The translations under genes were made by a program, and so were the position numbers. The notes under the pieces were generated by a model. That model ran no database searches, was not told the origin of the DNA, and worked only from the letters and a program-made list of their open reading frames with translations. A DNA stretch of 64,000 bases from Ignavibacteriota bacterium (GTDB lineage: Bacteria; Bacteroidota; Ignavibacteria; UBA10030; UBA6906): NCBI GenBank assembly GCA_963801355.1, contig CAWDEM010000004.1, positions 832,001 to 896,000 of the forward strand, given 5' to 3'. Within the stretch, counting starts at the first letter, position 1, and each line of letters starts with the position of its first letter. This document shows, piece by piece, positions 38,851-63,306 of the stretch.

Positions 38851-38955
38851 ATCGGTCCCTGACGGCTTCCTCAGCCCAAGGGCCGCCGCTCTGGTCCCCA
38901 TTCTGGTCCCTCCGCTCAAGAACCCTCTCCGGCAACTTGCAGAGCGGGGCCATTG
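38851..38955 (+). repeat. Conserved island leader element, copy C
   Basis: ATCGGTCCCTGACGGCTTCCTCAGCCCAAGGGCCGCCGCTCTGGTCCCC matches 53957-54005 and about 60845-60890. Confidence 0.8.
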
Positions 38956-39128: not shown

Positions 39129-41447
39129 ATGAACCGACGCGAATCGTTGAAAAATCTGGCGGCAACGTTTGCCACCGTACAGCTGGCTCATTTACCTCCG
39201 TTTGAAAGGTTCGAGCATATGACTGCCACGATCGATGAGAGCATTCTCACGCGTCTGGATCTGCTCCGGACGGAACCGCCGTGCCGATCGGAGATCCTGA
39301 TCGAGCGAGGGGGCGCGCGACTGTTTCTCAACGGCAAGGAGGAATTCCCGTTCTTTGCCGTCAGCTCCAGTTCACTCCGCACGGCGAAGAGTTATCGGGA
39401 AGCCGGAATACGCTTTCTGCATCCGTTGATCGGCCTTGAAGACGGCTGGATTGGTCCGGGGAAGTACGACTGGACACAATACGATAAGTATTTCGCGAAG
39501 CTCCTGGAGATCGTTCCCGATGCGTTTCTCTTTCCACGCATTCACCTTTATGCTCCGGTGTGGTGGAAAGAGGCACATCCTCAGGAACTCATCACGTGCG
39601 GACTCCCTGTACCGCCTGAGGAATACAATGTTCTCCCACAGTATGTCGACAGGGACTCGGGACTGAACTGGTCGCTGAACGATCCATATGGCGCATCGTT
39701 TGCCTCCGAGATCTGGAAGAAGGAGACTGCGGAGACACTCCGGCAATTCCTGAGGCATCTGGAATCGTCGCCCTTGAAGAGCAGAATGATGGGATACCAC
39801 GTGTCCGGTATGCACACCGGTGAGTGGCATTACCTCGGATGCCGTTGGTTTCCCGACTACAGTGCGCCGATGCAGAAGGTGGCTGGACCAGTGCCGTCGG
39901 TTGAGCGTCGAATCGACAAGGATGGACCGTTGTTGCGCGACCCCGAGACCGACGGGGATGTCATCGATTTTCTTAGAAAGTACCACGCAAACACGGCAGA
40001 GACGGTGGCAGTGTTTGCAAAGATTGTCAAGGAAGAGACCGGGAGGCGGGTCATTTGCGGTACGTTTTTCTGCTATGTTCTAGAAAATGTCATGATCCAG
40101 GAAGCTGGGCACCTCGTGCCGGACGCGGTGCTCCATTCTCCCGACATCGACTTCATCGCGACACCGTATACATATCAGCGGAGCAATGTCCCCGGCAATC
40201 AGCGATGGGATAGCGACGTGATCGATGACGCGGGCAACTGGCTTGGCCGTGCCCGTGGGGTTGGTGGCGACGGCGCATACCGTGTGCTGAGCGAGTCCAT
40301 ACGCCGAAACAAGAAAATGTTCATATCAGAAATTGATTGCAGTACCTACCTGGAGCCGTACCGGCGGAGCGAGGGCGGTTCCGGTTCGGATACAATCGAA
40401 GGAACACTCAAGATCCTCCAACGTGATATCGGTCAGGTTTTTGCCACAGGTCATGCCGGCTGGTTGTTCGACTTCGGACACCTCAGCCCACCATTCAAAG
40501 CCAACAAGAGCTGGTACGATGATCCTCCAATGATTCACGAAATCAGATCGCTTCTAAGTCTGGGAGAAAAAGAGCGCCCGATACTCGATATCAGTCCGAT
40601 CTCCGAGATCGCCGCGGTCTATGAACCGAAGTCATGGCTTGCGACGAAGAGTTGGAAGGCCGAAGAACCGTGGGAGCACCACGGTATTGTCATAAGCGAT
40701 TTTATCGGCCACTGGATGGTAAACTCACAGGCGCGCACAATCAACCGGATTGGTACGCCAGCGGATTTTCTGTACCGTTTTGATCTCACCCCCGATGACC
40801 GTTCTCGATTCAAGCTCTTTCTCATGGTCAATACATTCTTCCTGACAGGGGATGAAGTGCAACGGCTCCGGATGCTTTTCAAAGGATCAGGTGCAACGGT
40901 CCTCTGGTTCTACGCGCCGGGCTACATTGGTCAACATAAGTTCGAGCCGTCGCAGATGGAGGAGTTGACCGGTTTCACATTCAGGCGGATGGATGCACCT
41001 GGCCCGATGATGATCCGGTGCAAGATCGAAGAGAATGAACTGAAGTACTTCCGGGAGTTTGGTGTGCAGAAGCCGCATTACCCGCGTTTTACGGTCGTAC
41101 CGCGCGAGGGTGAAATGCTCCGCATCCATGGCACCTGGAGTGACAGTCAGGAAATTGCATTTGCGAGCAAGGAATACGATGGCTTCACGTCGATCTACGT
41201 GGGAACGGGACCGATGCCGGTAGAATTGCTCCGGTGGATTGCAGGGCGGGCGGGAGTGAAGCTCTGGAGTTCCAAACCCGACAATGTACGGGCCACCAAG
41301 GACGCAGCAATGCTCGTCGCGACCGATGAAGGTGAACGGGTCTTCAGGCTGCCGCACCCGATGGCTTCCGTGGAGGGAGGTGCTGCGGCAATCGAACACA
41401 GGCTCTCAATGCAGTTCGGGGAAGTGAGACTCTTTGTGAAGGCTTGA
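39129..41447 (+). CDS. Putative beta-galactosidase-like (clan GH-A) glycoside hydrolase with a Tat-like N-terminus
   Basis: NRRESLK; W..PG.YDW...D, PR+.L.AP.WW...HP.E, SFAS..W, GYH......GEW, EID..T; family not resolved. Confidence 0.6.
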   Translation: MNRRESLKNLAATFATVQLAHLPPFERFEHMTATIDESILTRLDLLRTEPPCRSEILIERGGARLFLNGKEEFPFFAVSSSSLRTAKSYREAGIRFLHPLIGLEDGWIGPGKYDWTQYDKYFAKLLEIVPDAFLFPRIHLYAPVWWKEAHPQELITCGLPVPPEEYNVLPQYVDRDSGLNWSLNDPYGASFASEIWKKETAETLRQFLRHLESSPLKSRMMGYHVSGMHTGEWHYLGCRWFPDYSAPMQKVAGPVPSVERRIDKDGPLLRDPETDGDVIDFLRKYHANTAETVAVFAKIVKEETGRRVICGTFFCYVLENVMIQEAGHLVPDAVLHSPDIDFIATPYTYQRSNVPGNQRWDSDVIDDAGNWLGRARGVGGDGAYRVLSESIRRNKKMFISEIDCSTYLEPYRRSEGGSGSDTIEGTLKILQRDIGQVFATGHAGWLFDFGHLSPPFKANKSWYDDPPMIHEIRSLLSLGEKERPILDISPISEIAAVYEPKSWLATKSWKAEEPWEHHGIVISDFIGHWMVNSQARTINRIGTPADFLYRFDLTPDDRSRFKLFLMVNTFFLTGDEVQRLRMLFKGSGATVLWFYAPGYIGQHKFEPSQMEELTGFTFRRMDAPGPMMIRCKIEENELKYFREFGVQKPHYPRFTVVPREGEMLRIHGTWSDSQEIAFASKEYDGFTSIYVGTGPMPVELLRWIAGRAGVKLWSSKPDNVRATKDAAMLVATDEGERVFRLPHPMASVEGGAAAIEHRLSMQFGEVRLFVKA

Positions 41448-41635
41448 TTGTTTCCTTTTCCGATTGATCTGGTTTGCAATTGCCTTCCGCAGGCTGGCGC
41501 TGCTCCATATTCATTGAAAGCGTGCTGCCTCCGGAACTCGGCAAGTTTGTAGCGAGTTGACCACAAATTCACTATCTTTCGCCCCGACACCGAGACTTCG
41601 GTTCCACCGTATCCCAATGAATGACTGGAGGTCTT

Positions 41636-43846
41636 ATGCGGCGGACTCTCGCAGTTGTTGCCCTCCTTCTCCTCTTCGTCATCACTGGATCAGCACAGAT
41701 GGTATGGGACTGGGCGGCCTCTTTCGCTTATCCCGGGTATCTCGCAATCCCATCAAGCCCGACTCTCCAGTTCAGCGGGAGTATCTCTGTCGAATGTTGG
41801 GTCAATGCCCCTAATGTGTCCACGTCCGGGGATCAGGGCCTTCTGTGCAAATACAGCACACCAGGGACAGGCTTTGCGCTGGCCCTCCGCAGCGGACGAA
41901 TCCTGTTTGAAATCGGCGGATCTCCGGTGTTCCTTGGAAAAGCGGTGCTCCCCGATGGTCAGTGGGCCCACGTTGCGGTGGTGTACGATTCATCGGCGAA
42001 GACAGTCACAAGCTACATCAACGGCAATCTTGACACAGTGCGTACAAGTGTGAATTCCCCGATACGTTGGAACCAGGACTCACTCTTCGTCGGGTTTCAC
42101 ACGAACAATCCTCCTATGACCCAGTTCACCGGTCTCCTCGACGAAATCCGGATATGGAATAGGCCATTGAGTTTGACGGAAATCCAACGCAACAGGTTCA
42201 TGACCCTCGCCTACGTATCCGGCCCATACTCAGGAGTGGTGCTTTCCATCACGTTCCAATTCTTGGCACAAGCGCCTATACCATATGCGCCCCAGGACTT
42301 CTCCGGGAATGATTTAACCGTGAGAATCCGGGGGAATGTGTCTGGCGCAAGTGTGGGAACCGGGCCATCCAGGAAACTCATCCCCAACGAAGCTGTCCGT
42401 TTTGATGGGGGCGGGTATCTCTCGACACCGAGCTCGACCATCAACAACTTCAGCTCATCCCACACGCTGCAGTGCTGGGTATGGCCCGACACGATTCAGA
42501 CGGGGATCATCCTCCAGAAACGTGAAGGGGCTCACATAGTCGGGTACACACTCTATCTCGATGGAAATAGAGTCGCCTTCAGGATCAACAATCCCACCGT
42601 GTTGGAGTCTCGGCGGCCGATTCCCATTCGCGAATGGACTCACATAGCCGCGATATACAACGACACAACCAGGACTGCAACGCTGTATCTCAATGGATCG
42701 CTTGATACCAGCGCGGCCCCTGCGGTGGCATCTTCCCCCATCGCAAGCAGTGATTCTCTTTTCATCGGAACGGGTTACAACGGACCATTCCGTGGCTACA
42801 TAGATAACGTCGTGATATCACCTGGTATATGGACAGGAAAACAGATCGCCACATGGATGGCGGCCGGACTCGACGTTTGGCACAGGGGGCCGGACTTGCC
42901 GCCCTTGAGCATCTACAACTTTGACGGCTCCCTGGCATCAGGGATGTCTTCGGACCTCCGCATGAGATTTAATGGCACAGCCCGGTTCAGTCACCCGGCA
43001 TATTATGGCAGCGTCCCGACTTCTCCTATGTTGCGTGCAGACGATCTCGGCTATCCCTACGGCTTCATGTTGAAAGCCTCAGACCGGCGAATCCCGGCAG
43101 CAGAAACGCGAGGGAACATGATCGAAGACTCGCTCTCGGTAGTCGACGAACCGACGATTTCGAGTATGCGCCTCGCGCTCACAATCAATCACACGATGAC
43201 GACGGATCTCATCGTTTCCCTTGTCCATCCAGCCGGAGATTCCGTCATCGTGTTCAACAGGGGACAACTTCTCCACCCTCTGGAGAACATCAATGCAATT
43301 TACGATGACTGGGCTGACAGCGCGACTGCATATGATAAATCGGTTGGCTGGCTCCCACGTGTGAAGCCGTGGGCCTCGCTCAATGGGACATTTGGGGGGA
43401 GGAGCGCGAAAGGCATGTGGAGACTGCGCGTGAATGATGTCTCAGGTGGGGATGTTGGTCGCCTCTACATTTGGGGACTGCAGTTCAACAATCAGGCTGC
43501 GACCGGAGTAGCGCAGCATGGTACTTCTGATGTTCCCGAGAAAACGAAGCTCTTCCAGAATTACCCGAACCCATTCAATCCATCGACGGTGATTCGCTAT
43601 CAGGTGGGATCTGCCGGCATGGTACGGCTTGCCATCTATGATCTGCTCGGTCGTGAGGTGTCGGTGTTGGTAAACGAAAGGAGGGAAGCCGGAATCTACG
43701 AGGCGAACCTTGACGCGTCGAGGCTTTCCAGCGGAGTCTACCTCTATCGGCTGGAGGTCCGCCCTCTGGACTCCGCCATCGGGCGTGACTCCAAGAGCGG
43801 AGCGGGCGATTTCGTCCAGGCTTGCAAGCTGGTCGTCGTGCGGTGA
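41636..43846 (+). CDS. Secreted protein with two LamG-like domains, a proprotein-convertase P-domain and T9SS CTD (with palindromic insert)
   Basis: W.HVAVVYD...YING, F.G.LDEIRIWN; I.HT...DL..SL.HP.G...G.W.LRV.D...GD.G.L..W.L; CTD. Confidence 0.85.
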   Translation: MRRTLAVVALLLLFVITGSAQMVWDWAASFAYPGYLAIPSSPTLQFSGSISVECWVNAPNVSTSGDQGLLCKYSTPGTGFALALRSGRILFEIGGSPVFLGKAVLPDGQWAHVAVVYDSSAKTVTSYINGNLDTVRTSVNSPIRWNQDSLFVGFHTNNPPMTQFTGLLDEIRIWNRPLSLTEIQRNRFMTLAYVSGPYSGVVLSITFQFLAQAPIPYAPQDFSGNDLTVRIRGNVSGASVGTGPSRKLIPNEAVRFDGGGYLSTPSSTINNFSSSHTLQCWVWPDTIQTGIILQKREGAHIVGYTLYLDGNRVAFRINNPTVLESRRPIPIREWTHIAAIYNDTTRTATLYLNGSLDTSAAPAVASSPIASSDSLFIGTGYNGPFRGYIDNVVISPGIWTGKQIATWMAAGLDVWHRGPDLPPLSIYNFDGSLASGMSSDLRMRFNGTARFSHPAYYGSVPTSPMLRADDLGYPYGFMLKASDRRIPAAETRGNMIEDSLSVVDEPTISSMRLALTINHTMTTDLIVSLVHPAGDSVIVFNRGQLLHPLENINAIYDDWADSATAYDKSVGWLPRVKPWASLNGTFGGRSAKGMWRLRVNDVSGGDVGRLYIWGLQFNNQAATGVAQHGTSDVPEKTKLFQNYPNPFNPSTVIRYQVGSAGMVRLAIYDLLGREVSVLVNERREAGIYEANLDASRLSSGVYLYRLEVRPLDSAIGRDSKSGAGDFVQACKLVVVR
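43757..43801 (+). repeat. 45-bp in-frame palindromic CTD insert
   Basis: Differs by 1 nt (synonymous) from the copies at 60342 and 63062. Confidence 0.92.
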
Positions 43847-43981
43847 TTTCACCCTCCATGTGAGATGGTAATATGAGTGATTTCACCTGGGAATCGGCCT
43901 CTTCTCCATTGTGGAGAATAATGATTTTTTACCGTAGCTTATATGCAATGGGAGTGGAAACGATTGAGAGGAAGGCTTGCG

Positions 43982-44209
43982 ATGGCAACAGCACATCAGT
44001 TTACGGCGATCATTGAGCGGGAAGACGATTCTTACGTTGCGCTTTGTCCCGAACTCGACATCGCGAGTCAGGGAGCAAGCGTTGAAAATGCGCGCCTGAA
44101 CCTCAAGGAAGCAATAGAGCTTTTTTTTGAATCCGCTTCTCCTGAGGAAATTCGTGAGCGGCTTCATGATGAAATCTTTATCACCCGCCTTGAGATAGCC
44201 GTTGCCTAG
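43982..44209 (+). CDS. hicB: HicB-family antitoxin (short form)
   Basis: FTAIIERE.D.YVALCPELDIASQG.SVE.A..NLKEAIELF. Confidence 0.9.
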   Translation: MATAHQFTAIIEREDDSYVALCPELDIASQGASVENARLNLKEAIELFFESASPEEIRERLHDEIFITRLEIAVA

Positions 44210-44422
44210 CTCCGCATACTCTGCGGCCGGGACGTCTGTCAGATTCTCTCCCATCACGGCTTCGTGGAGGTGCGACAACGAGGCATTCACATTGTCATGC
44301 AGAAGAGGATTCCCGGCTCGACCATTACTGTCCCCGTCCCCAACCACGCCGAGATCAAGCGTGGAACGCTCAAATCGATCATCCGCCAGTCGCAGTTGCC
44401 CATAAGCGAGTTCGAGGGGTAG
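44202..44422 (+). pseudogene. hicA: HicA-family toxin, frameshifted at codon 3
   Basis: TTG CCT AG- then the frame LRILCGRDVCQILSHHGFVEVRQRGIHIVMQKR...VPVPNHAEIKRGTLKSIIRQSQLPISEFEG*. Confidence 0.85.
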
Positions 44423-44516: not shown

Positions 44517-44530
44517 GTGCCCGGAACCGG
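44517..44530 (-). repeat. Degenerate tRNA-Leu 3'-end copy (putative att site)
   Basis: GTGCCCGGAACCGG vs tRNA GTGCCCGGAACAGG (13/14), intergenic. Confidence 0.55.
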
Positions 44531-53676: not shown

Positions 53677-53733
53677 AAAAAAGCCTCCGAATTTCACGTA
53701 TACCGTTACGTATACGGCATACATTCGGAGGCT
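53677..53733 (-). terminator. Long hairpin with U-tract on the minus strand, downstream of the tRNA fragment
   Basis: AAAAA-AGCCTCCGAAT...ATTCGGAGGCT with inner CGTATAC/GTATACG. Confidence 0.7.
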
Positions 53734-53772
53734 AAGGCCGCTAACCTCACTGCTCTAAGTCATTGTCTTCTA

Positions 53773-53790
53773 TGGTGCTCGGAACAGGAC
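53773..53790 (-). repeat. tRNA-Leu 3'-end copy (att site) including encoded CCA
   Basis: TGGTGCTCGGAACAGGAC; 53775-53790 is 15/16 to 63222-63237. Confidence 0.8.
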
Positions 53791-53915
53791 ATGTCAACTG
53801 TGCGAAGTCAATCGACGATCAGCTCGGCTCCTGGTGGATTCTGAAGGAAATGCCCCTTCGGTAGTGGCGTCCTTGGCACGGTCTAGAGTGACCCCGTTGC
53901 GCCCTTCGATACCCC

Positions 53916-54060
53916 TTGCGCGTTCTCCTACGCTGGTGTATATTTCTGGCACAGACATCGGTGCCTGATGGCTTCCTCAGCCTGAGGGCCGCCGCTCTGG
54001 ACCCCGTACCAGTTGCCCCGTTGTAGAGTCCTCCTCGACGACCCCGGGCTGACATTCCGA
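53916..54060 (+). promoter_or_regulatory. Island promoter and conserved leader, copy B
   Basis: TTGCGC(53916)-17-TATATT(53939); GGCACAGAC; GGGCCGCCGCTCTGGACCC (53986-54004). Confidence 0.75.
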
Positions 54061-54151
54061 TAATAAGGCAGGGAAGGTCACATCTCAGTGCCTCGGATGT
54101 TACCGGAGCCCTGATGCAATCCCCATGCCTCGCACGTAGGAGCCACCTGCA

Positions 54152-57100
54152 ATGGAGAAGCATCCGCCCCTCGTTTCGGATCTCTCGTGGATCCTTGGAG
54201 TCCTACTCTTCCCCTGCGTGCTCCAGGCCCAGGAGGTTCATCCGCGGTTTGAGGATTACAAGAACATCTTTCCCACCTGCGTCTACCAGGACTCGTTCGG
54301 ATTTCTCTGGATTGGCACTCAGGTCGGCCTGACTCGCTACGATGGGTACAGCTTCAAGCGTTACACGGTTGCTCTCAATGATTCCAATGCGATCTCGAAT
54401 CTCTGGGTGACGGATATCGACGAAGATCACCGTGGGAATCTTTGGATCGGGACCTATGGAGGCGGCCTCAACTACTACGATCAGAAAACCGGCCGCTTCG
54501 TCCACCATGCACTCACCAACGCGGCTTCGGGAGGAGTGGCGAGCGACTTCATCAACGCGTTGACTGCAGACGACGACGGCTCAGTCTGGCTGGGCACCGG
54601 AGATCGAGGTGTTATTCACCTGACCGTGGATTCCGGGGGGACCCCGCGCTGGAAAAGATACGACCTCACCGACCCCGCGTCGTCCACCCCACCCAAGGGG
54701 CAGAACTTCATCCTTGCCCTCCACAAGGACCGTGAGGGATATGTCTGGGCAGGTACAATCCGGGGTGGTTTGACCAGGATTTACCCCAGGACGGGCGATG
54801 TTCGCCACTATCGCAATGAACCCGGTAATCCACTTAGCCTCAGTCATAACACCGTGGGTTCCATCTGCGAGGATGAAGCGGGAAATCTCTGGATCGGCAC
54901 GGGCTTCGAGGCGATTCCGGACGGCGGGGGGATCAACATGTTTGACCGCAACACTGAGCAATTCCGCCGCTTCAAGCACGATGCTTTGGATCCGACTTCG
55001 CTCCCCTCCGACAGGATCGGTTCCCTCCTGATAGACCGCGGGGGGACTCTATGGATCGGTACACTGGATGAGGGACTGGCGTCGATCCCCTTGCATGGAC
55101 TGGCGGTCGGGAAGAAGACCTCATTCACAAGCTACCCGGATCTGCGGAAGGAGATCATCGTGTCGCTGTATGAGGACCGGTGGGGGAACGTGTGGGCTTC
55201 CACGTTCGGGTCATTGCTGTACAAGCATGACTCCCTTCAGAACCCCTTCATCCACTACCGGAGGTATGCGGGGAAAGCGAACAGCATGAGCAGCACGGGC
55301 GTGCAGAGCGTGTTCTTTGACCGATCGGGAAATCTCTGGTTCGGGTTCTACTCTACCGGCCTCGACAGATACGACCCCCGCCCTGGTCGCTTCACACACT
55401 ACCGGCATCGTCCGGATGACCCCCGCAGTATCGGTGCAGACCGTATCAATGGAATCTGCGAAGATGACAGTGGCTACGTCTGGCTCGCGACGAACGGTGG
55501 GGGGCTGAACCGGCTCGACCCCCGTGACGGAGCCGTGCTGCAGCTGAAAGGAATCAGGAAATACCCCGGTGAGGTCGCCTCGAATTTCCTCAGGGCCATT
55601 CTTGCGCGACGCGGCGGCGGTTTCTGGGTGGCGCTGCAGAATTCCACCCTCCGGCTCTACGATAGAGTGGTGGACCGTTTCATCACGGTCGATCTCCCCA
55701 CCAGAAGTGGGCCGGTCGCAGAAATTGCCTCACTCTGCGAGGATCAATCCGGAGCACTCTGGGTGGGAACCATGGGTGAAGGGATTCTCCGTGTCCGGAT
55801 GGAGAAAGATCGGCCCCTGGATGTGAAACGGTTCGTGCGCATTCCCGGCGAACGAAATTCTCTGAGCTATAACGGTGTAAACGACATCATCAGAGCGGGG
55901 ATCCTGGACACCAATGCGCTGTGGATCGCCACGGATTTTGGGCTGAATCGACTGGACCTGGAGACATCTACGTTCACACACTTCTTTGAGCGCGACGGGA
56001 TGGCAAGCGATGTTGTGCTCAAGGTGCTGGAGGACGCCCGGGGGAATATCTGGTGCTCCACGATAGAAGACATTTGCATGTATGATGTCCGTCGCAAACA
56101 CATCACCAGCTACGGCCTGAGCGACGGCCTGCCGTTCATCGACTTCGGCGGTGCCCGCCAGAACGCCGCTCGAGCACCCGACGGGCAAATGGTGTTTTCC
56201 GGCGCATCGGGATCTCTGGGGTTCTATCCCGAGCGGCTCCGCCGCAACACGCGTGTCCCACCCGTGTACCTGACAGACATCCGGGTCTTTCACGAAAGTC
56301 TTGATCTCGACACCGCCGTTCAGTTCACTCATCGGGTGACTCTCTCGCACTCTCAGAATACCCTCTCCATTGAGTTCATAGCATTGAGTTTCACACACTG
56401 CGAAAGGAACCAGTACGCGTACAAGCTGGAGGGTTTTCAGGACGAGTGGACCTACTGCAGGACAGAGCGGACCGCGAGCTTCAGCAATCTCGATCCTGGC
56501 AGGTATGTGTTTCGGGTCAAAGGATCGAACAATCACGGTGTATGGAACGAAGAAGGAACATCGCTTCTTATTACCATCACGCCCCCCTGGTGGAGGTCAC
56601 GCTGGGCGTACGCTGGATATGTTCTCTTGGCCGTTGGGACCATCGTGGGGGCCTGGCGGCTGCAAACACGCCGGCTCCGAACGAGGCACGAACTTGAACT
56701 GAGGCGGGTGGAGGCGGAGAAGATGAGGGAACTGGATTCGCAGAAGTCGAACTTCTTTGCGAACATCTCGCATGAGTTCCGAACCCCCCTGACATTGATC
56801 CTTGGACCCGTTTCGCGGTTGCTTTCCCGGCCGCGGAACGAGCTGGATCGCCAAGATCTCGGGATCATGGAGCGGAACGCACGACGCCTTCAGCGGCTCA
56901 TCAACCAGCTTCTGGACCTCGCGCGCATCGAAGCCGGAAGGCTGAAGCTTCACGCCCACCCGGTTGATCTGGTGCGTTATTTGAACAGAGTCGTCGCCAC
57001 GTTTGAGTCTCATGCGCGATTGCGGGACATTGATCTCTCGTTCACCGCGATCCCTGACCGCATCGAGGTCTTTCTGGACCCGGAGAAGTTTGAGGATGTG

Positions 57101-58345
57101 ATCTACAACCTTCTCGCCAACGCATTCAAATACACGCCGGATGGTGGGAAGGTAGAGGTGAGAGCTGCGCTTGGGGCGCATGATGGTCGACACGACGGCG
57201 GTTCCAAAGGGCCCTCCTGCGTGGAAATCACGGTGTCGGACACCGGCATCGGGATCCCGCCCGAAAGCCTGGACAAAGTGTTCGAGCGGTTCTACCAGGT
57301 TCAGGAACCGAAGGCGCGTGAGCTAGGGGGAACCGGTATCGGGCTGGCCTTGGTGAAGGAACTCGTCGATCTGCATCACGGAAGCATTTCTGTGGAAAGC
57401 CATGTGGGAGGGGGGACGACATTCAGAATCCAACTGCCCATAGGGAAGGGCCAATTCGGTTCAGACGAGGTTGCGGAAGACGAACTTGATCAGGACGAAG
57501 TCCAGGGGCCTTCTGTGGAGGTTTCTGAGGTCCCTCGAGCCGAGGCGGAGTCGACACGGAGTGCCCGGGAGGCTAGAGATCGGCAAAGGGCGCTCGTGCT
57601 CGTGGTGGAGGATAACCCGGATATGCGCACATACCTTACCGGGTCCCTGAAGGCTGACTATCGCGTCGTCGAAGCAACCGACGGGGAGGCAGGTCTTCAG
57701 GTGGCGATAGATGGGATCCCCGACCTCGTGATCAGCGACGTAATGATGCCGAGAATGGACGGGTTCGAGCTCTGCAGGCGACTGAAAGACGACGACCGGA
57801 CCAGCCATATTCCGGTCATTCTCCTGACAGCCCGCGCGACCTCGAGGGATAGGCTGGAAGGACTGGAACGGGGAGCCGATGATTACATCATCAAGCCGTT
57901 CGATGTTGGGGAACTCAAGGCTCGTGTGGGGAATCTCATCGCCCTCCGACGGAAACTGAGGGAACGCTTTGTCCGTGAGGGGCGATTTCTCCTGGAGAAT
58001 GCTCCTGTCACGTCTCTGGATAAGGTTTTTCTGCGAAAGGTAATTGAGGCTGTGCAGCAGCACCTTCGAGACGACCAGTTTGGCGTTGAATCCCTCGCCC
58101 GGATTGTTGGATTCAGTGTTTCGCAGCTTGAGCGAAAGCTCGAGGGCATCGCAAGCCAGCGTCCCAATGAGTTCATTCGTGCGATCCGGCTCGAGCAGGC
58201 GCGGCACATGCTCGAGGCACGAGCGGGAACAGTCTCTGAAATCGCCTTTGACGTCGGTTTCAACAACCTGTCGTATTTTGCACGATCCTACAAGAAGAAG
58301 TTCGGTTTTTCCCCCTCCAGAACCCCTGAGGCAACCCGCAAGTAG
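54152..58345 (+). CDS. Hybrid two-component system (Reg_prop propeller, Y_Y_Y, His kinase, receiver, AraC HTH)
   Basis: D..G.LWIGT repeats; Y.YKLEG; FFANISHEFRTPLTLI; NLL.NAFKYT; GTGIGL; ISDVMMP.MDG; VGFNN.SYF. Confidence 0.95.
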   Translation: MEKHPPLVSDLSWILGVLLFPCVLQAQEVHPRFEDYKNIFPTCVYQDSFGFLWIGTQVGLTRYDGYSFKRYTVALNDSNAISNLWVTDIDEDHRGNLWIGTYGGGLNYYDQKTGRFVHHALTNAASGGVASDFINALTADDDGSVWLGTGDRGVIHLTVDSGGTPRWKRYDLTDPASSTPPKGQNFILALHKDREGYVWAGTIRGGLTRIYPRTGDVRHYRNEPGNPLSLSHNTVGSICEDEAGNLWIGTGFEAIPDGGGINMFDRNTEQFRRFKHDALDPTSLPSDRIGSLLIDRGGTLWIGTLDEGLASIPLHGLAVGKKTSFTSYPDLRKEIIVSLYEDRWGNVWASTFGSLLYKHDSLQNPFIHYRRYAGKANSMSSTGVQSVFFDRSGNLWFGFYSTGLDRYDPRPGRFTHYRHRPDDPRSIGADRINGICEDDSGYVWLATNGGGLNRLDPRDGAVLQLKGIRKYPGEVASNFLRAILARRGGGFWVALQNSTLRLYDRVVDRFITVDLPTRSGPVAEIASLCEDQSGALWVGTMGEGILRVRMEKDRPLDVKRFVRIPGERNSLSYNGVNDIIRAGILDTNALWIATDFGLNRLDLETSTFTHFFERDGMASDVVLKVLEDARGNIWCSTIEDICMYDVRRKHITSYGLSDGLPFIDFGGARQNAARAPDGQMVFSGASGSLGFYPERLRRNTRVPPVYLTDIRVFHESLDLDTAVQFTHRVTLSHSQNTLSIEFIALSFTHCERNQYAYKLEGFQDEWTYCRTERTASFSNLDPGRYVFRVKGSNNHGVWNEEGTSLLITITPPWWRSRWAYAGYVLLAVGTIVGAWRLQTRRLRTRHELELRRVEAEKMRELDSQKSNFFANISHEFRTPLTLILGPVSRLLSRPRNELDRQDLGIMERNARRLQRLINQLLDLARIEAGRLKLHAHPVDLVRYLNRVVATFESHARLRDIDLSFTAIPDRIEVFLDPEKFEDVIYNLLANAFKYTPDGGKVEVRAALGAHDGRHDGGSKGPSCVEITVSDTGIGIPPESLDKVFERFYQVQEPKARELGGTGIGLALVKELVDLHHGSISVESHVGGGTTFRIQLPIGKGQFGSDEVAEDELDQDEVQGPSVEVSEVPRAEAESTRSAREARDRQRALVLVVEDNPDMRTYLTGSLKADYRVVEATDGEAGLQVAIDGIPDLVISDVMMPRMDGFELCRRLKDDDRTSHIPVILLTARATSRDRLEGLERGADDYIIKPFDVGELKARVGNLIALRRKLRERFVREGRFLLENAPVTSLDKVFLRKVIEAVQQHLRDDQFGVESLARIVGFSVSQLERKLEGIASQRPNEFIRAIRLEQARHMLEARAGTVSEIAFDVGFNNLSYFARSYKKKFGFSPSRTPEATRK

Positions 58346-58418
58346 CACCCGAGCAGGCTGACCCGTCTCCTCAGAGGTAAGATCCACCGGGGCGTGTAGG
58401 CTCCGGATCCAGCCGCTG

Positions 58419-58447
58419 TGCCGAATAATTGCAGGTAGATGCTGAAT
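58419..58447 (+). promoter_or_regulatory. Putative AraC-type tandem binding site
   Basis: TGCCGAAT (58419) and TGCTGAAT (58440), 21-bp period, between the HTCS and the next gene. Confidence 0.4.
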
Positions 58448-58580
58448 CCGTGTTAGCTTTCCGGAGCCGCATGAGCGTACCTTCCGAACACAGGTCGACG
58501 GTTGTTGTGTGCGCAAGCCGCCCTGCACAAACCACAACGAGAAGTCCTTGCCGGGATTACACCACGTGCGGAGGTATCAT

Positions 58581-60431
58581 ATGAAACCTTATCATTTCCT
58601 TCTGGTGTCCGTCGGGGCCGTGGCGTTCTTCGCTGCATTCAACGATTCATCGGCGGCCATTCGGCGCGTACCATCACAGTACGGCTCCATACAGCGTGCT
58701 ATCGAAGCGGCCCTCGACGGAGATACTGTTCTCGTGGCAGACGGCACCTACTATGAGAACATCAGATTCATGGGGAAAGCCATCACGGTAGCCAGCCACT
58801 ATCTCATCGACATGGACGCGAGGCACATCGACAGTACTGTCATCAATGGGAGTCGGCCGGCCAGTCCCGACTGGGGTTCCACCGTACTCTTCATCAATGG
58901 CGAGGACACGAGTTCTGTACTCTGGGGGCTGACCATCACGGGCGGAACAGGCTCTGTGAACCCCTCCGGCTACCGCGTGGGTGGTGGTATCTGGATAAAG
59001 GCGGGCTCCGGCGCTAGAATCTGCCACAATAGGATCATTTCCAACAACGTGTCTCAGCTCACGTTTGCGCTTGGAGGGGGTGTTTCCGCCGGATCCCCAT
59101 ATCAGCCCGGGGGCTGGCTTATTCTTGAAGACAACGAAATCTCCCGGAACACCGTCACAGGATCAGAAGGCGTTGGAGGGGCCGGTGTGCTCTGCTCGCT
59201 ACCTGCGAGGATCCAGCGGAATCGCATTGAAGGCAATGAAGGTTTCACAGGGGGAAGCGCTGACGACGGCGCCGGGATAAGCTGCTGGACAGATGTTCAA
59301 CGAGGGAAGAAGGAACTGCTCCTGTGCGGGAATATCATTACCAGAAACAAGTTCACTTCAACGGGTGTAGATCAGTACGGTCAAAGCGGTCTCGCCGGGG
59401 GAATGTCCGTTGTTGGATACCGGGGGATTGTCGAGCACAATGTCATCACTGAGAACGAACTCGAGGGACCTGCGGCGTTGTACGGCGGGGGTGTCTTGAT
59501 AAGCGACTGTAATGACTCTACGGAATTCCGCAACAACAGAATCAGCGGAAACAAGTTGATCGGGAACGGGGAGCAACGGGGTGGGGGAGTGTGCGTCTGG
59601 GAGTGCAGCCCGAAAATCTACAACAACATCATTACGGGCAATGAGGGGAGGATGGGGGGAGGGGTCTATGTGGGTGGGACCGCGTCTACGGGTCGGCCGC
59701 AGATGATCAACAACACCATATGCGAGAATCAAGCGTCGTCTGGATGTGGCCTTTACGCAGATTCTTCATATCCGGTTGTCATCAATTCGATCCTGTGGGA
59801 TCAGAATCAGGACACGGAGGTCTGGCAGGTGGGAGGACAGGTCACGATCGCGTATTCGGATGTCAGGGGTGGCTGGCTAGACACGGGGAATATAAACGCC
59901 GATCCGCTTCTTTTGCCAGGGGATTCAATGTGTAACCTGATGTCAAGTAGTCCTTGCATCGGACGCGGCATTGACTCCATTCAGATTGGTGGAGTCTGGT
60001 ACCATGCGCCAACAAGCGACTACGACAGGACGGCACGCCCAATGCCGACGGAAACTCATCCTGACATGGGTGCGCAGGAGGAGCAGATCACTGTGGATGT
60101 TGAGACCCAGGAGCTTGTGCCCTTGACATATCAGCTGTATCAGAACTACCCCAACCCCTTCAACCCCTCAACCACTATCCGCTACGATCTCCCGAGCCGC
60201 TCCCATGTGATCCTGACCGTCTTCAACACACTCGGGCAGCAGGTAGCCACGCTCGTCCAGGGGGAACGGGAGGCTGGGTATCACGAGGTCAAGTTTGATG
60301 CTTCAGAACTTGCGAGCGGAGTGTATCTGTACAGGATGCAGGTCCGCCCTCTGGACTCCGCCATCGGGCGGGACTCCAAGAGCGGAGCGGGAGAATTCGT
60401 CCAGACGCGAAAGTTTGTCCTTCTGCAGTAA
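58581..60431 (+). CDS. Secreted parallel beta-helix (pectin-lyase fold) protein with T9SS CTD (with palindromic insert)
   Basis: VP..Y.SIQ.AI..A.DGDTVLV..GTY.ENI.F; GGG+/N.I..N repeats; GNI.ADP; DMGA.E; CTD. Confidence 0.85.
   Translation: MKPYHFLLVSVGAVAFFAAFNDSSAAIRRVPSQYGSIQRAIEAALDGDTVLVADGTYYENIRFMGKAITVASHYLIDMDARHIDSTVINGSRPASPDWGSTVLFINGEDTSSVLWGLTITGGTGSVNPSGYRVGGGIWIKAGSGARICHNRIISNNVSQLTFALGGGVSAGSPYQPGGWLILEDNEISRNTVTGSEGVGGAGVLCSLPARIQRNRIEGNEGFTGGSADDGAGISCWTDVQRGKKELLLCGNIITRNKFTSTGVDQYGQSGLAGGMSVVGYRGIVEHNVITENELEGPAALYGGGVLISDCNDSTEFRNNRISGNKLIGNGEQRGGGVCVWECSPKIYNNIITGNEGRMGGGVYVGGTASTGRPQMINNTICENQASSGCGLYADSSYPVVINSILWDQNQDTEVWQVGGQVTIAYSDVRGGWLDTGNINADPLLLPGDSMCNLMSSSPCIGRGIDSIQIGGVWYHAPTSDYDRTARPMPTETHPDMGAQEEQITVDVETQELVPLTYQLYQNYPNPFNPSTTIRYDLPSRSHVILTVFNTLGQQVATLVQGEREAGYHEVKFDASELASGVYLYRMQVRPLDSAIGRDSKSGAGEFVQTRKFVLLQ
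60342..60386 (+). repeat. 45-bp in-frame palindromic CTD insert
   Basis: GTCCGCCCTCTGGACTCCGCCATCGGGCGGGACTCCAAGAGCGGA, identical to 63062-63106. Confidence 0.95.
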
Positions 60432-60453
60432 TGACCGTCAAGCCGAAAATTGA

Positions 60454-60488
60454 AAGAGCCCTCATCTCTAACGAGATGGAGGGCTCTT
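60454..60488. terminator. Hairpin terminator, homologous to 63171-63206
   Basis: AAGAGCCCTCATCTC-loop-GAGATGGAGGGCTCTT. Confidence 0.8.
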
Positions 60489-60502
60489 CTGTAAGTTGAC
60501 CC

Positions 60503-60518
60503 AGTGCCCGGAACAGGA
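60503..60518 (-). repeat. tRNA-Leu 3'-end copy (att site)
   Basis: AGTGCCCGGAACAGGA, identical to 63221-63236. Confidence 0.9.
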
Positions 60519-60800
60519 AATGTCGACTCTGCGAAGCCAATTGGGGATACGGAGGGCTCCTGGTGGATTATCAGGGAGATGCCCTTGGACCCCCCGAAGC
60601 CACGGCGGAAAAGTAACGAAAAAGGTAACGTTACTTTGAGGTGACGTTACTGATATCCTCGCCATCGTTTAGTACCGTTCAGTTTTCGGATTCCCTCCCA
60701 GTCGTAAGGACAAGCGTCCGTCCGACGCATGAACTGAACCAGCAACAGAGGGCTTCGCCGCCCCGGGATGGGTGACGCGGTTCCTCCTTCCTGAAAGACC

Positions 60801-60945
60801 TTGCGTGTACACCTTTGTCGGCGTATATTGCCGGCACAGACTGTTTGGCGCCCAATGGTCCCTTAGCCTCTGGGCCGCCGCTCTGGACCCTGTATCAGTT
60901 CCTCCGCCTTAGAGCCCACCCCGACGACTCGCATGAGGATTCCAT
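60801..60945 (+). promoter_or_regulatory. Island promoter and conserved leader, copy A
   Basis: TTGCGT(60801)-17-TATATT(60824); GGCACAGAC; GGGCCGCCGCTCTGGACCC (60872-60890). Confidence 0.75.
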
Positions 60946-61039
60946 GTGCAGCGGTGCCGCCTGGGGGGCTGACGCCTCGTCGCATGCCTAGATCCCCGAA
61001 GAGCCCCACGGTGCATATCCCTTTTTGGAGGAGGACAGG

Positions 61040-63151
61040 ATGACAAGATCTCTCGTTCACCTCGCGCTCGCTACTCTGCTAGCGTGCTCTTCTGCATCCA
61101 CGCAATGGCTTCAGACGAGCGGCCCTGAGGGCGGAGAGGTAAATTGTTTTGCCGCCAGCGGCGAGTATCTGTTTGCCGGAACCGAGGTCGGTATACTTCT
61201 CTCAACCGACAACGGCACGAGCTGGGTGTACACTGCACTGAGGGGGACGGTTCTGTGCCTTGCCGTCAAACCCAACAGTGCATCGGCAACTTCTCTCTTT
61301 GCCGGGGGTCCTTTTGGAGTGGGTCGCTCCACGGACAACTGGAATAGCTGGGCTCATGCGGATGCCGGTCTGGGAGACAACGGCGTGAGGAGTCTCGCTG
61401 TGAAAGACACCAATATTTTTGCGGGGACGGACAGCGGTGGCGTTTTTCGTTCGAGGGATGAGGGTGCAAGCTGGTTTCCCGTCAATGAAGGCTTGACCAA
61501 TATCTTCGTCAACTCTCTTGCCGTGATCGACAGAGATCTTTATGCTGCAACCGATAGTGGACTATTCCGTTTTTCAGATGACGGCACCAGTTGGGCGTTT
61601 ATTGGACTTGCCGGGAAGATCGTCAATACTGTTGCCGCCATCGACACGAGTCTCTTTGCGGGAACCGAACGTGACGGTCTTTTCCGCTCGACTGATGTTG
61701 GGAGGAACTGGAAGGCGGACACCATTGCCGGCATGGATCCGTCTGTCAGAGCGTTTGCCGTGACCCCTCCGTATCTCTTTGCAGGCACGCCGGGCGGGCT
61801 CTATCGCACACCTGACGGCGGACGATCCTGGTCCCGCTTCGATGCGGGTCTGAGCAATCCAAACGTGAAGGCGTTGTGTATCAAAGGTGTGGTTCTCTTT
61901 GCCGGGACCTATGGTGGAGTCTTTCGTTCAACGGACGGCGGAGAGCACTGGAGCAAAACCAGCGCCGATATGAAGATCGTGTTTGTGGAAGCCCTTGCGA
62001 GCAGGGGTGAAACTCTCTATGCAGGGGGTATTAACGGAGTGTTTCGTTCGACTGACCGCGGTGATAGCTGGTCCGACGTTGTGAGTTGCTGGGCTCGTTC
62101 GCTTGCCATCGAAGGGATGAAGCTCTACTTGGGGACCACGGAACATGTGTTCTACTCATTCGACGACGGTGCCACATGGAACTTTCTCTGGTTGGGCGTG
62201 GCCGAAGGGCTGGTGTATGCCCTTGCCGTCAACGGTACGGAGCTTCTTGCAGGGATGGCGAGGGACGGGGTGCTGCGCATTGGGATTCCCACTCCGGGTG
62301 CCGGGATTGTTACCACGACGGACCTGAAAGATACTGCTGTCTATGCCCTCGCTGTCAGTGGAACGAATCTCTTTGCCGGGACTGAGAGGGGCGTGTTTCG
62401 CTCAACGAATGGCGGAATCAACTGGACTGCCGTCAATAACGGGCTGACGAAATTCGAAGTCCTGGCCCTCGCCGTTCAGGGGTCGCACCTCTTTGCGGGT
62501 ACGAAAGAGGGAGGCATGTTCCTTTCGACAGACGACGGCGGCACTTGGACTCCTGCGGATAGCGGACTCACTGACGCGGATATACTGTCTTTCGCAATCA
62601 GTGGCAACAATCTCTTCGCGGGGACCTGGCAGGGCGGCGTCTTCCTTTCATCGGACAACGGCACGAGCTGGAATGCCGTCAATGACGGTTTAACGAATTC
62701 ATCTGACCAGGTTTCTTCCGTCGTTCATGCCCTGGCAATTGTGGGTACAGATCTGTACGCTGGGACCCGGGGGGCCGGCGTATGGCGACGTCCACTCTCT
62801 GAGATGGTAGTGTCGGTGGAGAATACGCCAACCGAATTGCCCTCATCGTATTCTCTGCACCAGAACTACCCCAACCCCTTCAACCCGAGCACGTCCATCA
62901 CGTACGAGTTGCCTATCAGCGCGGACGTGAGGTTGGCCGTATACGACGTGCTTGGCCGCGAAGTATCAGTTCTTGTGCAGGAAAGGAAGACGGCCGGAAT
63001 ACATAAACTCATGTTTGAAGGAGGAGGCCTCTCCAGCGGAGTTTATCTCTACAGGCTGCAGGTCCGCCCTCTGGACTCCGCCATCGGGCGGGACTCCAAG
63101 AGCGGAGCGGGCGATTTCGTCCAGACGCGAAAGCTTCTCCTTCTGCAATGA
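61040..63151 (+). CDS. Secreted BNR/Asp-box beta-propeller protein with T9SS CTD (with palindromic insert)
   Basis: GGAGGAGG RBS; signal peptide; repeated LFAGT..GVF.STD.G.SW...N.GL; CTD. Confidence 0.88.
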   Translation: MTRSLVHLALATLLACSSASTQWLQTSGPEGGEVNCFAASGEYLFAGTEVGILLSTDNGTSWVYTALRGTVLCLAVKPNSASATSLFAGGPFGVGRSTDNWNSWAHADAGLGDNGVRSLAVKDTNIFAGTDSGGVFRSRDEGASWFPVNEGLTNIFVNSLAVIDRDLYAATDSGLFRFSDDGTSWAFIGLAGKIVNTVAAIDTSLFAGTERDGLFRSTDVGRNWKADTIAGMDPSVRAFAVTPPYLFAGTPGGLYRTPDGGRSWSRFDAGLSNPNVKALCIKGVVLFAGTYGGVFRSTDGGEHWSKTSADMKIVFVEALASRGETLYAGGINGVFRSTDRGDSWSDVVSCWARSLAIEGMKLYLGTTEHVFYSFDDGATWNFLWLGVAEGLVYALAVNGTELLAGMARDGVLRIGIPTPGAGIVTTTDLKDTAVYALAVSGTNLFAGTERGVFRSTNGGINWTAVNNGLTKFEVLALAVQGSHLFAGTKEGGMFLSTDDGGTWTPADSGLTDADILSFAISGNNLFAGTWQGGVFLSSDNGTSWNAVNDGLTNSSDQVSSVVHALAIVGTDLYAGTRGAGVWRRPLSEMVVSVENTPTELPSSYSLHQNYPNPFNPSTSITYELPISADVRLAVYDVLGREVSVLVQERKTAGIHKLMFEGGGLSSGVYLYRLQVRPLDSAIGRDSKSGAGDFVQTRKLLLLQ
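63062..63106 (+). repeat. 45-bp in-frame palindromic CTD insert
   Basis: Encodes VRPLDSAIGRDSKSG between YRLQ and AGDF. Confidence 0.95.
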
Positions 63152-63170
63152 ATGTTACACTGGAAAATGA

Positions 63171-63206
63171 AAGAGCCCCCAATCTCGCTACGAGATGGGG
63201 GCTCTT
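63171..63206. terminator. Hairpin terminator between the convergent cargo gene and tRNA
   Basis: AAGAGCCCCCAATCTCG-loop-CGAGATGGGGGCTCTT. Confidence 0.8.
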
Positions 63207-63222
63207 CTGTATGGTGATCTAG

Positions 63223-63306
63223 TGCCCGGAACAGGACTTGAACCTGCACGACCTCGCGGCCACTAGCTCCTGAAGCTAGCGCGTCTGCCAATTTCGCCAT
63301 CCGGGC
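63223..63306 (-). tRNA. tRNA-Leu (anticodon CAG), CCA not encoded
   Basis: Reverse complement GCCCGGATGGCGAAATTGGCAGACGCGCTAGCTTCAGGAGCTAGTGGCCGCGAGGTCGTGCAGGTTCAAGTCCTGTTCCGGGCA: cloverleaf with a long variable arm. Confidence 0.97.

Follow-up and report, generated by a model that had tools for sequence, protein, structure and literature searches.

The closest described counterparts of the locus treated here are the prophages and integrative elements inserted by large serine recombinases (LSRs), those of the Bxb1, phiC31 and SPbeta type. Classic LSR elements typically target protein-coding genes. Our locus is a tRNA-Leu(CAG) gene of an Ignavibacteriota bacterium together with two islands stacked next to it, units A and B, in a 64-kb stretch of DNA that we call the window (GCA_963801355.1, contig CAWDEM010000004.1, positions 832,001-896,000; the source genome has 4.8 Mb in 8 contigs and is 100% complete). 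In our opinion both units are probably remnants of LSR elements that have lost their recombinase, lying at a tRNA-Leu(CAG) gene used as an integration hot spot. The likeness to LSR elements comes from relatives of the source genome, in which the recombinase has the Resolvase, Recombinase and Zn_ribbon_recom domains, the attachment (att) sites are short with a small identical core, and the recombinase gene is at the very end of the element, as is described for Bxb1. There are two differences from the classic elements. The targets here are the 3' ends of tRNA genes (Leu-CAG, and in sister clades Met-CAT and others), and the element's own attachment site, attP, appears to lie inside the reading frame of the recombinase, so that the C-terminal tail of the enzyme would change on integration.

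An att site inside a recombinase gene is known from archaea. According to a review, the gene of the 'suicidal' (SSV-type) tyrosine integrases contains the att site, which overlaps a tRNA gene; after integration each end of the element holds one part of the integrase gene, and such integrases are given for archaea only (PMC8371274). The resemblance to the relatives of our source genome is one of working principle: those enzymes (SSV, pTN3 and pT26-2 type) are tyrosine integrases whose short N part is separated from the catalytic C part, whereas the enzyme here is a bacterial serine recombinase that would lose only its last 30-45 residues and gain about 14. The integrated form may well stay active. 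In the integration-dependent immunity of mycobacteriophage BPs and its relatives, attP is inside the repressor gene, and the prophage form of the protein has a C-terminus different from, and shorter than, the viral one, which serves as a switch (PMC4557955). Common to both cases is an attP in a coding region and a C-terminus changed on integration; in the BPs switch it is a repressor that loses an ssrA-like degradation tag, and here it would be the recombinase itself, with a putative role of the tail.

Two further comparisons concern the array rather than the enzyme. Integron cassette arrays likewise consist of units of one or two genes stacked at one site, with copies of the recombination site between them and varying cargo. 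They differ in that near our locus there is no integron integrase and no attC-type structure, the units have promoters of their own and the array is at a tRNA gene. Tandem accretion and cis-mobilizable remnants at tRNA hot spots also produce recombinase-less units side by side, bounded by att copies. The described cases of this generally involve tyrosine integrases, whereas the scar here can be recognised as part of the gene for a serine recombinase. A literature search at the level of abstracts, with subscription journals outside its scope, returned neither a serine recombinase gene that itself extends, with its 3' end, across an attP in a tRNA gene nor cassette arrays at tRNA-Leu for substrates of the type IX secretion system (T9SS). 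If our reading is correct, the principle of an att site inside the recombinase gene would extend from archaeal tyrosine integrases to bacterial serine recombinases. There would be a clade of LSRs that target tRNA genes with their own 3' ends spanning attP, and its natural pairs of isoforms, with the free and the integrated tail, would be relevant to directionality control.

Repeats at tRNA-Leu and the coding nature of the left arm

The tRNA-Leu(CAG) gene (63222-63306 of the window, minus strand; all other features below are on the plus strand) is the sole copy in the source genome and the candidate chromosomal attachment site, attB, of the LSR elements. Its final 15-16 nt recur twice in the window. 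Att copy 1 (53775-53790) is the reverse complement of the last 16 nt with one mismatch, and att copy 2 (60504-60518) is identical to the tRNA end at 15 of 15 positions. Direct repeats of the core thus stand at 53775, 60504 and 63222, the last of them inside the target gene, and delimit unit A (53775-60503) and unit B (60504-63221). Direct core repeats at both ends are likewise found in the related genomes G007, G070, G208, G220, G211 and G018.

Much of the repeat anatomy had been proposed in an earlier note made from the letters of this DNA, and it stands. The ungapped match of the left ends, 53790-53855 against 60519-60584, was recounted at exactly 50 of 66 positions, and it is part of a wider block (53775-53855 against 60504-60584) with 64 of 81 matches and a blastn E value of 7.5e-13. 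The promoter-like string TTGCG-17-TATATT, which had been reported to follow both left ends together with a common leader, occurs just twice in the window by regular expression (53916-53944 and 60801-60829), and promoter plus leader of the two units are 75.6% identical over 131 columns (E 1e-17). The right-end repeat of about 200 bp, 60315-60518 against 63035-63236, is 86.4% identical over 206 columns; the similarity widens to 60135-60518 against 62855-63236 (74.6% over 389 columns, E 8.6e-63) and reaches from the T9SS C-terminal sorting domain (CTD), past the stop codon and a hairpin, as far as the att copy. The interiors were said to be unrelated, and indeed domain annotation and blastn find nothing in common between them. 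A simple scan for sigma-70 promoters and terminators called neither the promoters nor the hairpins behind the CTDs.

The segment that begins with each internal att copy is what we call the left arm. Arm A (53775-53864) reads as 29 codons, VLGTGHVNCAKSIDDQLGSWWILKEMPLR and a stop, and arm B (60504-60644) as 46 codons, VPGTGNVDSAKPIGDTEGSWWIIREMPLDPPKPRRKSNEKGNVTLR and a stop. When 30 unique arm loci are set on att, the conservation rises from 0.0-0.5 bits before the first att base to 2.0 bits after it, and the left flanks are unrelated to each other. Read from the GTG of att, the arm gives a conserved peptide of 29-50 amino acids, VPGTGHVDSAK followed by SWWIVKEMPLDP and ending in PRRK before the stop codon, with 41 distinct arm peptides. 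This frame is kept in 27 of the 28 anchored arms despite indels, and the ratio of synonymous to nonsynonymous codon changes is 45:65 in it, against 14:83 and 22:84 in the other two frames.

What this reading frame belongs to can be seen in relatives. A recombinase with Resolvase, Recombinase and zinc-ribbon domains adjoins tRNA-Leu in G018, G043 and G083. The G018 gene is an open reading frame (ORF) of 605 amino acids (Resolvase 3.6e-20, Recombinase 2.4e-19, Zn_ribbon_recom 7.2e-14), and its tail, RNIV/VPGTGLEPARPRGH and stop, crosses the core into the antisense tRNA-Leu in the frame of the arm; on the same strand, at a distance of 61 kb, there is another core, and behind it a homologous arm, VPGTGMDDVAKSGLANAWWAVREMSPY and stop. 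The LSRs of G043 and G083 end as that of G018 does. Among the intact or nearly intact LSRs that adjoin tRNA-Leu (L101, L102, L110 and L103), three of the four read the core as VPGTG. G211 has a 46-kb element with a canonical arm at its far end and, at the tRNA, the remnant of an LSR tail, PESPISLRRVA/VPGTGLEPARPHGH and stop. G007 and G220 keep 37-40 codons of an LSR tail beside the tRNA, with the arm 2.1 kb away in the former and 7.2 kb away in the latter, which are islands of just these sizes. Finally, LSR tail, core and arm are contiguous in the metagenome loci L058, L059 and L068. It is this continuity of LSR, core and arm which argues that attP is inside the 3' end of the LSR gene, the arm being what stays behind at the distal junction. 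Its coding pattern marks the arm as a probable displaced fragment of an LSR gene, and not a vector end designed for expression.

We propose the following course of events. The 3' end of tRNA-Leu(CAG) would be the chromosomal attachment site for LSR-driven integrative elements of the Ignavibacteria family to which the source belongs, with attP inside the last part of the LSR reading frame. Integration would fuse the LSR, at the tRNA-side end, to about 14 codons of antisense tRNA, while its original last 30-45 codons, with the 15-16-nt core, would be stranded at the far junction as the left arm. Successive integrations would push older elements outward and thereby build an array, and later loss of the recombinase genes in the source genome would leave units A and B, each of them keeping the arm-proximal part, that is promoter, leader and one or two genes. 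The promoter and leader would be a 5' module used genome-wide and often placed before T9SS substrates, the CTD tail one subtype of a large paralog family, and the right ends of hairpin and att a type of flank that recurs before att in other genomes. The order of the insertions, the disappearance of the LSR through a deletion that the essential tRNA limits, and a regulatory role of the tail swap are what we infer rather than observe. The scar itself, a tRNA 3' end followed by a short conserved ORF, can be searched for and would mark past LSR integrations after the recombinase is gone; this would also explain the orphaned look of the tRNA-Leu islands.

No serine recombinase accompanies the scar in this genome. 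Neither tblastn with the G018 LSR nor a search for PF07508 and PF00239 gave a match in the 100% complete source genome, which argues that the window holds remnants, not elements, and that units A and B are immobile. Of the 68 genomes of the family, 9 have an arm; they fall into 7 of its 29 genera, and the four other species of the source genus have none. In a sample of 201 genomes of the order, all six with an arm are in the source family. LSR homologues are found in 18 of the 68 family genomes. An exact-pattern scan found arms at 44 loci that were not dereplicated, 8 in the genome collection and 36 in metagenomes, and at none in viral contigs; the records are titled as metagenome-assembled genomes of Ignavibacteriota or Bacteroidetes, one being labelled Acidobacteria. 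Within the source genome there is a third copy of att with arm, on contig C8 at 382797-382839 (42 nt, 88-90%), about 300 nt behind another CTD gene.

Two other identities of the arm were considered. Against a decayed tRNA or other structured RNA, neither strand yields a consensus structure (alifold -2.7 and -2.4 kcal/mol), and covariation in an arm hairpin that had been seen by eye proved to be codon variation. A search of a large collection for longer proteins ending in the arm peptide brought up four candidates among proteins of 82-2000 amino acids, none of which scored; this is weak evidence.

Sister LSRs of the family end at other tRNA genes, seven of them inside an antisense tRNA-Met (L105, L107, L111, L113, L114, L116 and L117) and two beside tRNA-Gln/Glu (L104 and L109). 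Among their characteristic tails are AGTGLEPATFGL and SGDRT, each followed by a stop.

Directly behind arm B, at 60610-60655, there are repeats of GTAACG and GTAACGTTAC, which alignments show to be kept in G070, G208, G217 and several metagenome loci. Such repeats could be binding sites of a regulator of the element or of a directionality factor.

Promoter, leader, sorting domain and cargo

In unit A the promoter-like TTGCGC-17-TATATT (53916-53944) aligns with the TTGAC and TATATTT found before other leader copies. It is followed by leader A (53957-54042), a hybrid two-component system (HTCS) gene at 54152-58345 with Reg_prop, Y_Y_Y, HisKA, HATPase_c, Response_reg and HTH_18 domains, and a beta-helix protein with a T9SS CTD (58509-60431). 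Hairpin and spacer at 60432-60503 abut att copy 2, and this flank is found before att also in G070, L047, L057 and L088. Unit B has TTGCGT-17-TATATT at 60801-60829, leader B at 60843-60928 and a BNR/sortilin-type beta-propeller protein with a T9SS CTD at 61025-63151; its hairpin and spacer (63152-63221) abut the tRNA and are 86% identical to 60432-60503. In the source genome the hairpin behind the stop codon together with att is common to A and B only.

The leader, of about 85 nt, stands behind a TTGAC-type promoter with TATATTT. A profile of promoter and leader (nhmmer) finds 21 copies in the source genome, the three seeds included, and 18 of the 21 are away from any att; the window has three, of 86 nt each (38851-38936, 53957-54042 and 60843-60928). 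For 13 of the 21 a CTD protein is encoded within the next three ORFs, C-termini being judged by eye, and others precede small exported or SnoaL-like proteins and kinases. The leader is a conserved sequence before many genes of T9SS substrates and regulators. One copy (contig C4, about 1,593,500-1,595,020) is just downstream of a tyrosine integrase beside tRNA-Asp, with a CTD protein next to it, and is a second context in which the leader is near an integration module.

As to the nature of the leader, the only Rfam match in the window at the gathering threshold is the tRNA, and at E<=10 the region 53700-54200 gives a single match at chance level. RNAalifold on 28 copies yields -3.2 kcal/mol with no compensatory pair, a hand-drawn structure of three hairpins (78% paired) is no better than shuffles, and a small ORF is contradicted by in-frame stops in copies A, B and others. 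BLAST with the leader against 300 genomes of the phylum found none outside the source genome, where the best two candidates per genome were scored and six genomes were of the same family, so that this says little.

The CTD family is larger still. By tblastn, counting copies with at least 60 amino acids aligned, the source genome has 208, of which 34 carry the insert RPLDSAIGRDS. Against PF18962, the Por_Secre_tail family, with its cut-off of 27 bits, the beta-helix protein scores 32.3 bits and a LamG protein of the window 31.6 bits; the BNR protein is just under the cut-off at 24.5 bits, and its Pfam match ends before a 15-amino-acid insert. We regard the CTD proteins of the window as predicted T9SS substrates. 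The insert is a 42-45-nt in-frame block, RPLDSAIGRDSKSG, with an inverted repeat, and lies between the last CTD strands. It has 33 copies in the source genome, at 60345-60386 in the beta-helix protein, 63065-63106 in the BNR protein, 43760-43801 in the LamG protein and at 30 more places. It is the most conserved DNA of the CTD, with a mean identity of 0.86 against 0.53-0.75 in the adjoining 30 nt. A 26-nt pattern of the insert gives 31 copies in the source genome, 1-6 in four congeners, 3 in G013 and 0 in 25 other relatives, and the cargo B ortholog of G070 lacks the insert. Gene conversion may be behind this pattern, or an in-frame module that spreads.

What travels with the arms was judged at 33 of the 44 scanned loci, those with at least 450 nt to the right of att; the rest were too short. 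A leader lies 290-355 nt inside the arm in 14 of the 33 (about 40%), and in one shorter locus in addition, and 19 arms are without a leader. At 8 of the 44 loci the end of a CTD gene is found no more than 400 nt to the left of att. Behind arm and leader there is a BNR propeller with CTD in unit B, G070, G208 and G217, and HTCS with a beta-helix CTD protein in unit A. The same two modules precede Ser/Thr kinases (L056, L057, L073), a DUF1295/PEMT membrane protein of the membrane methyltransferase type in L059, a beta-helix protein in L060 and, in L070 and L083, an outer membrane protein together with a beta-lactamase-like one. Where an arm has no leader, it is followed in G220 by an RND efflux operon, in G007 by a peptidase_MA-like protein, and elsewhere by peptidase S41, esterases and others.

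The earlier note had joined all of this into a conserved frame with swappable cargo, a single mobile 'expression-and-secretion vector' that supplies promoter and sorting signal to passengers of the secretome. One half of the idea holds, as arm, promoter and leader do stand before different cargo in different genomes. The frame as one element does not, given a leader of about 21 copies mostly off att, 208 CTD copies and arms that often lack leader or CTD. Part of what stands behind arms is not secreted, namely Ser/Thr kinases, an RND efflux pump and membrane methyltransferases. Occurrence of the end modules independently of each other and of tRNA-Leu had been named beforehand as the observation that would decide against the vector, and it was found for two of them, the leader and the CTD tail. 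The frame is put together from a recombinase scar and modules that occur all over the genome, and the T9SS tag is not an obligatory part of it. The origin of the islands from mobile elements, bounded by copies of the tRNA-Leu 3' end, is borne out.

Comparison with G070 and G208, which contain the whole of unit B, indicates how unevenly the parts evolve. To the right of the tRNA both are syntenic with the source genome at 71-75% nucleotide identity. The block from arm through spacer and promoter to leader is 83-85% identical overall and 85-92% in its middle, and the BNR cargo shares 44% of its amino acids with that of unit B. In G217 leader and cargo are those of unit B (cargo 86% over the first 146 amino acids) behind a different spacer, and leader B with its 5' untranslated region (UTR) is nearly identical to that of G217. 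In L047 it is on the left-hand side of att and arm that an 86% ortholog of cargo B is found, with the hairpin as in unit B. The tRNA-Leu locus is thus a mosaic in which non-coding frames are conserved and genes change fast or are exchanged, and arrays of this kind are sites of rapid turnover of T9SS substrates and regulators between related genomes.

Weighing the explanations

Several observations weigh against stacked LSR remnants and should be named together. We found no complete LSR gene joined to a canonical (HVDSAKS-type) arm and no clean excised form; the best case of LSR with arm, L058, ends at a contig edge with 150 codons open. L103, one of the four LSRs at tRNA-Leu, and a second LSR of G018 (L119) cross the core in another frame, and the coding signal of the arm is moderate, not overwhelming. 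None of the nine arm-bearing genomes of the family has an LSR match at E<=1e-10; as the source genome lacks one as well, we take the arms for fossils. The arm on contig C8 has no tRNA-Leu nearby, a tRNA-Ser being 4 kb off, and the arms of G005, G119 and G208 are in examined stretches without tRNA-Leu. The right ends of A and B have no LSR remnant: in both a CTD hairpin abuts att, and the flanks are 86% identical. Deletional decay bounded by an essential single-copy tRNA can remove the LSR. Identity of the flanks through non-coding DNA is, however, not predicted by simple decay, and an extra event is needed: the attB flank may have been duplicated, a flank may have been captured when excision was imprecise, or CTD paralogs may have undergone gene conversion.

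A first rival, in line with the earlier note, is that A and B belong to a dedicated class of recombinase-less cassettes, built as att, arm, promoter, leader, cargo, CTD and hairpin, that are moved by a recombinase in trans, supply signals for expression and T9SS export, and exchange their passengers. Unit B, G070 and G208 do show whole units of about 2.7 kb whose parts follow each other in one and the same order, and the tandem junction is alike in G217. At tRNA-Leu of G013 two CTD cassettes of one gene each stand in tandem, with another type of arm, hairpin and att are alike behind the BNR passenger of L047 and the beta-helix passenger of L088, the frame is better conserved between genera than core genes or cargo, and the 13 leaders before CTD proteins fit as well. 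Nevertheless we consider this reading unlikely, because every module also occurs alone, arm and leader precede kinases, a DUF1295/PEMT protein and an outer membrane protein with a beta-lactamase-like protein, and leaderless arms precede an RND pump, peptidase S41 and esterases. Moreover, the junction of hairpin, att and arm is an attL-type hybrid, and serine integrases are not known to recombine a hybrid of this kind with attB. Neither an excised form nor an empty site was found. Public runs gave no evidence of excision or of an empty site: the shares in the runs with matches were small (at most 0.19), and all joints are leader-to-leader or CTD-to-CTD with short sides, repeat-to-repeat artefacts (run X1 contains the source organism at low depth and X2 a relative with unit A genes). 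An RNA run likewise yielded no usable sign of transcription. Around tRNA-Leu no synteny with the closest complete congener, G004, is detectable besides CTD matches, so that no empty site can be defined there.

That A and B arose in place, by tandem duplication of one ancestral unit from arm to att beside tRNA-Leu with later replacement of the interior genes, is still less probable in our judgement. It would account for the same order of parts and for their similar divergence (79% in the arms, 76% in promoter and leader, 75-86% in the right ends). However, arm A is closer to the arms of G217 and G007 (86%), and arm B to that of G208 (87.5%), than they are to each other, which argues for separate insertions; the near identity of leader B and its 5' UTR to those of G217, the unrelated left flanks at the 30 unique loci and the lack of anything common in the interiors point in the same direction. 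We would be most surprised if these were ordinary tyrosine-integrase islands that have lost their integrase. Integration into tRNA 3' ends with short direct repeats is typical of such islands, and the source genome does have eight tyrosine recombinase genes, none of them near the locus (C4:885-896 kb). But no tyrosine integrase was seen beside tRNA-Leu(CAG) in any annotated stretch, in the window or at related loci, and in G018, G043 and G083 it is a serine recombinase gene that runs into the core, in a frame which the arm continues. Stacked LSR remnants thus remain the explanation that we prefer. It is tempting, if rather doubtful, to go one step further and to see the tRNA genes of this family as landing pads comparable to integrons: elements with an LSR gene straddling its own attP would deliver genes with a ready-made promoter and leader, the tail swap would be a switch that locks the element in, as a counterpart in bacterial serine recombinases of suicidal integration and of integration-dependent immunity, and once the recombinase had gone, stranded cassettes would be reshuffled through leader and CTD homology, diversifying the T9SS secretome.

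The third unit and neighbouring features

A third unit had been described in the earlier note as similar to A and B, with a leader at 38851, a cargo ending in the same CTD tail and an att-like site. The leader (copy C, 38851-38936) and the CTD tail, which matches those of A and B at 78-89%, are there; the promoter string is absent, and there is no att or arm with this leader. The tail belongs to a LamG/P-domain protein (41621-43846) of the CTD subtype common to A and B. The att-like site at 44517-44527 is an 11-nt match, GTGCCCGGAAC, read by eye; it is weak, with no arm behind it, and by arithmetic about 0.03 such matches are expected per window. The first gene of the unit, at 39129-41447, encodes a protein of 772 amino acids that has no Pfam family. 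It is 88% identical to a protein of G005 (L029, 4549-6867), where it follows att and arm, and the DNA flanks there are unrelated to those in the window.

Between the LamG gene and the att-like site there is a hicB-like gene with hicA (43943-44419; HicA 66.3 bits, the HicB-like match below the cut-off). This pair is 92% identical at the nucleotide level to a module that adjoins att in G070, with core genes at about 75%. A DDE_3 transposase is likewise 98.3% identical between L027 (14747-15921) and contig C6 of the source genome (23625-24799), in genera whose core is at about 75%. Sharing of the hic pair and of this insertion sequence with G070 so far above the core level argues for recent exchange of mobile DNA. 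Pairs of hicB-like gene and hicA adjoin att copies in three genomes (window 43943-44419, L027 about 11560-12290 and L043 about 3461-3620).

To the left of att copy 1, the segment 53390-53775 consists of gene debris without a Pfam match, including some 45 first codons whose translation, read by eye, resembles a transporter of the major facilitator (MFS) type, and a long hairpin is found there at 53680-53735.

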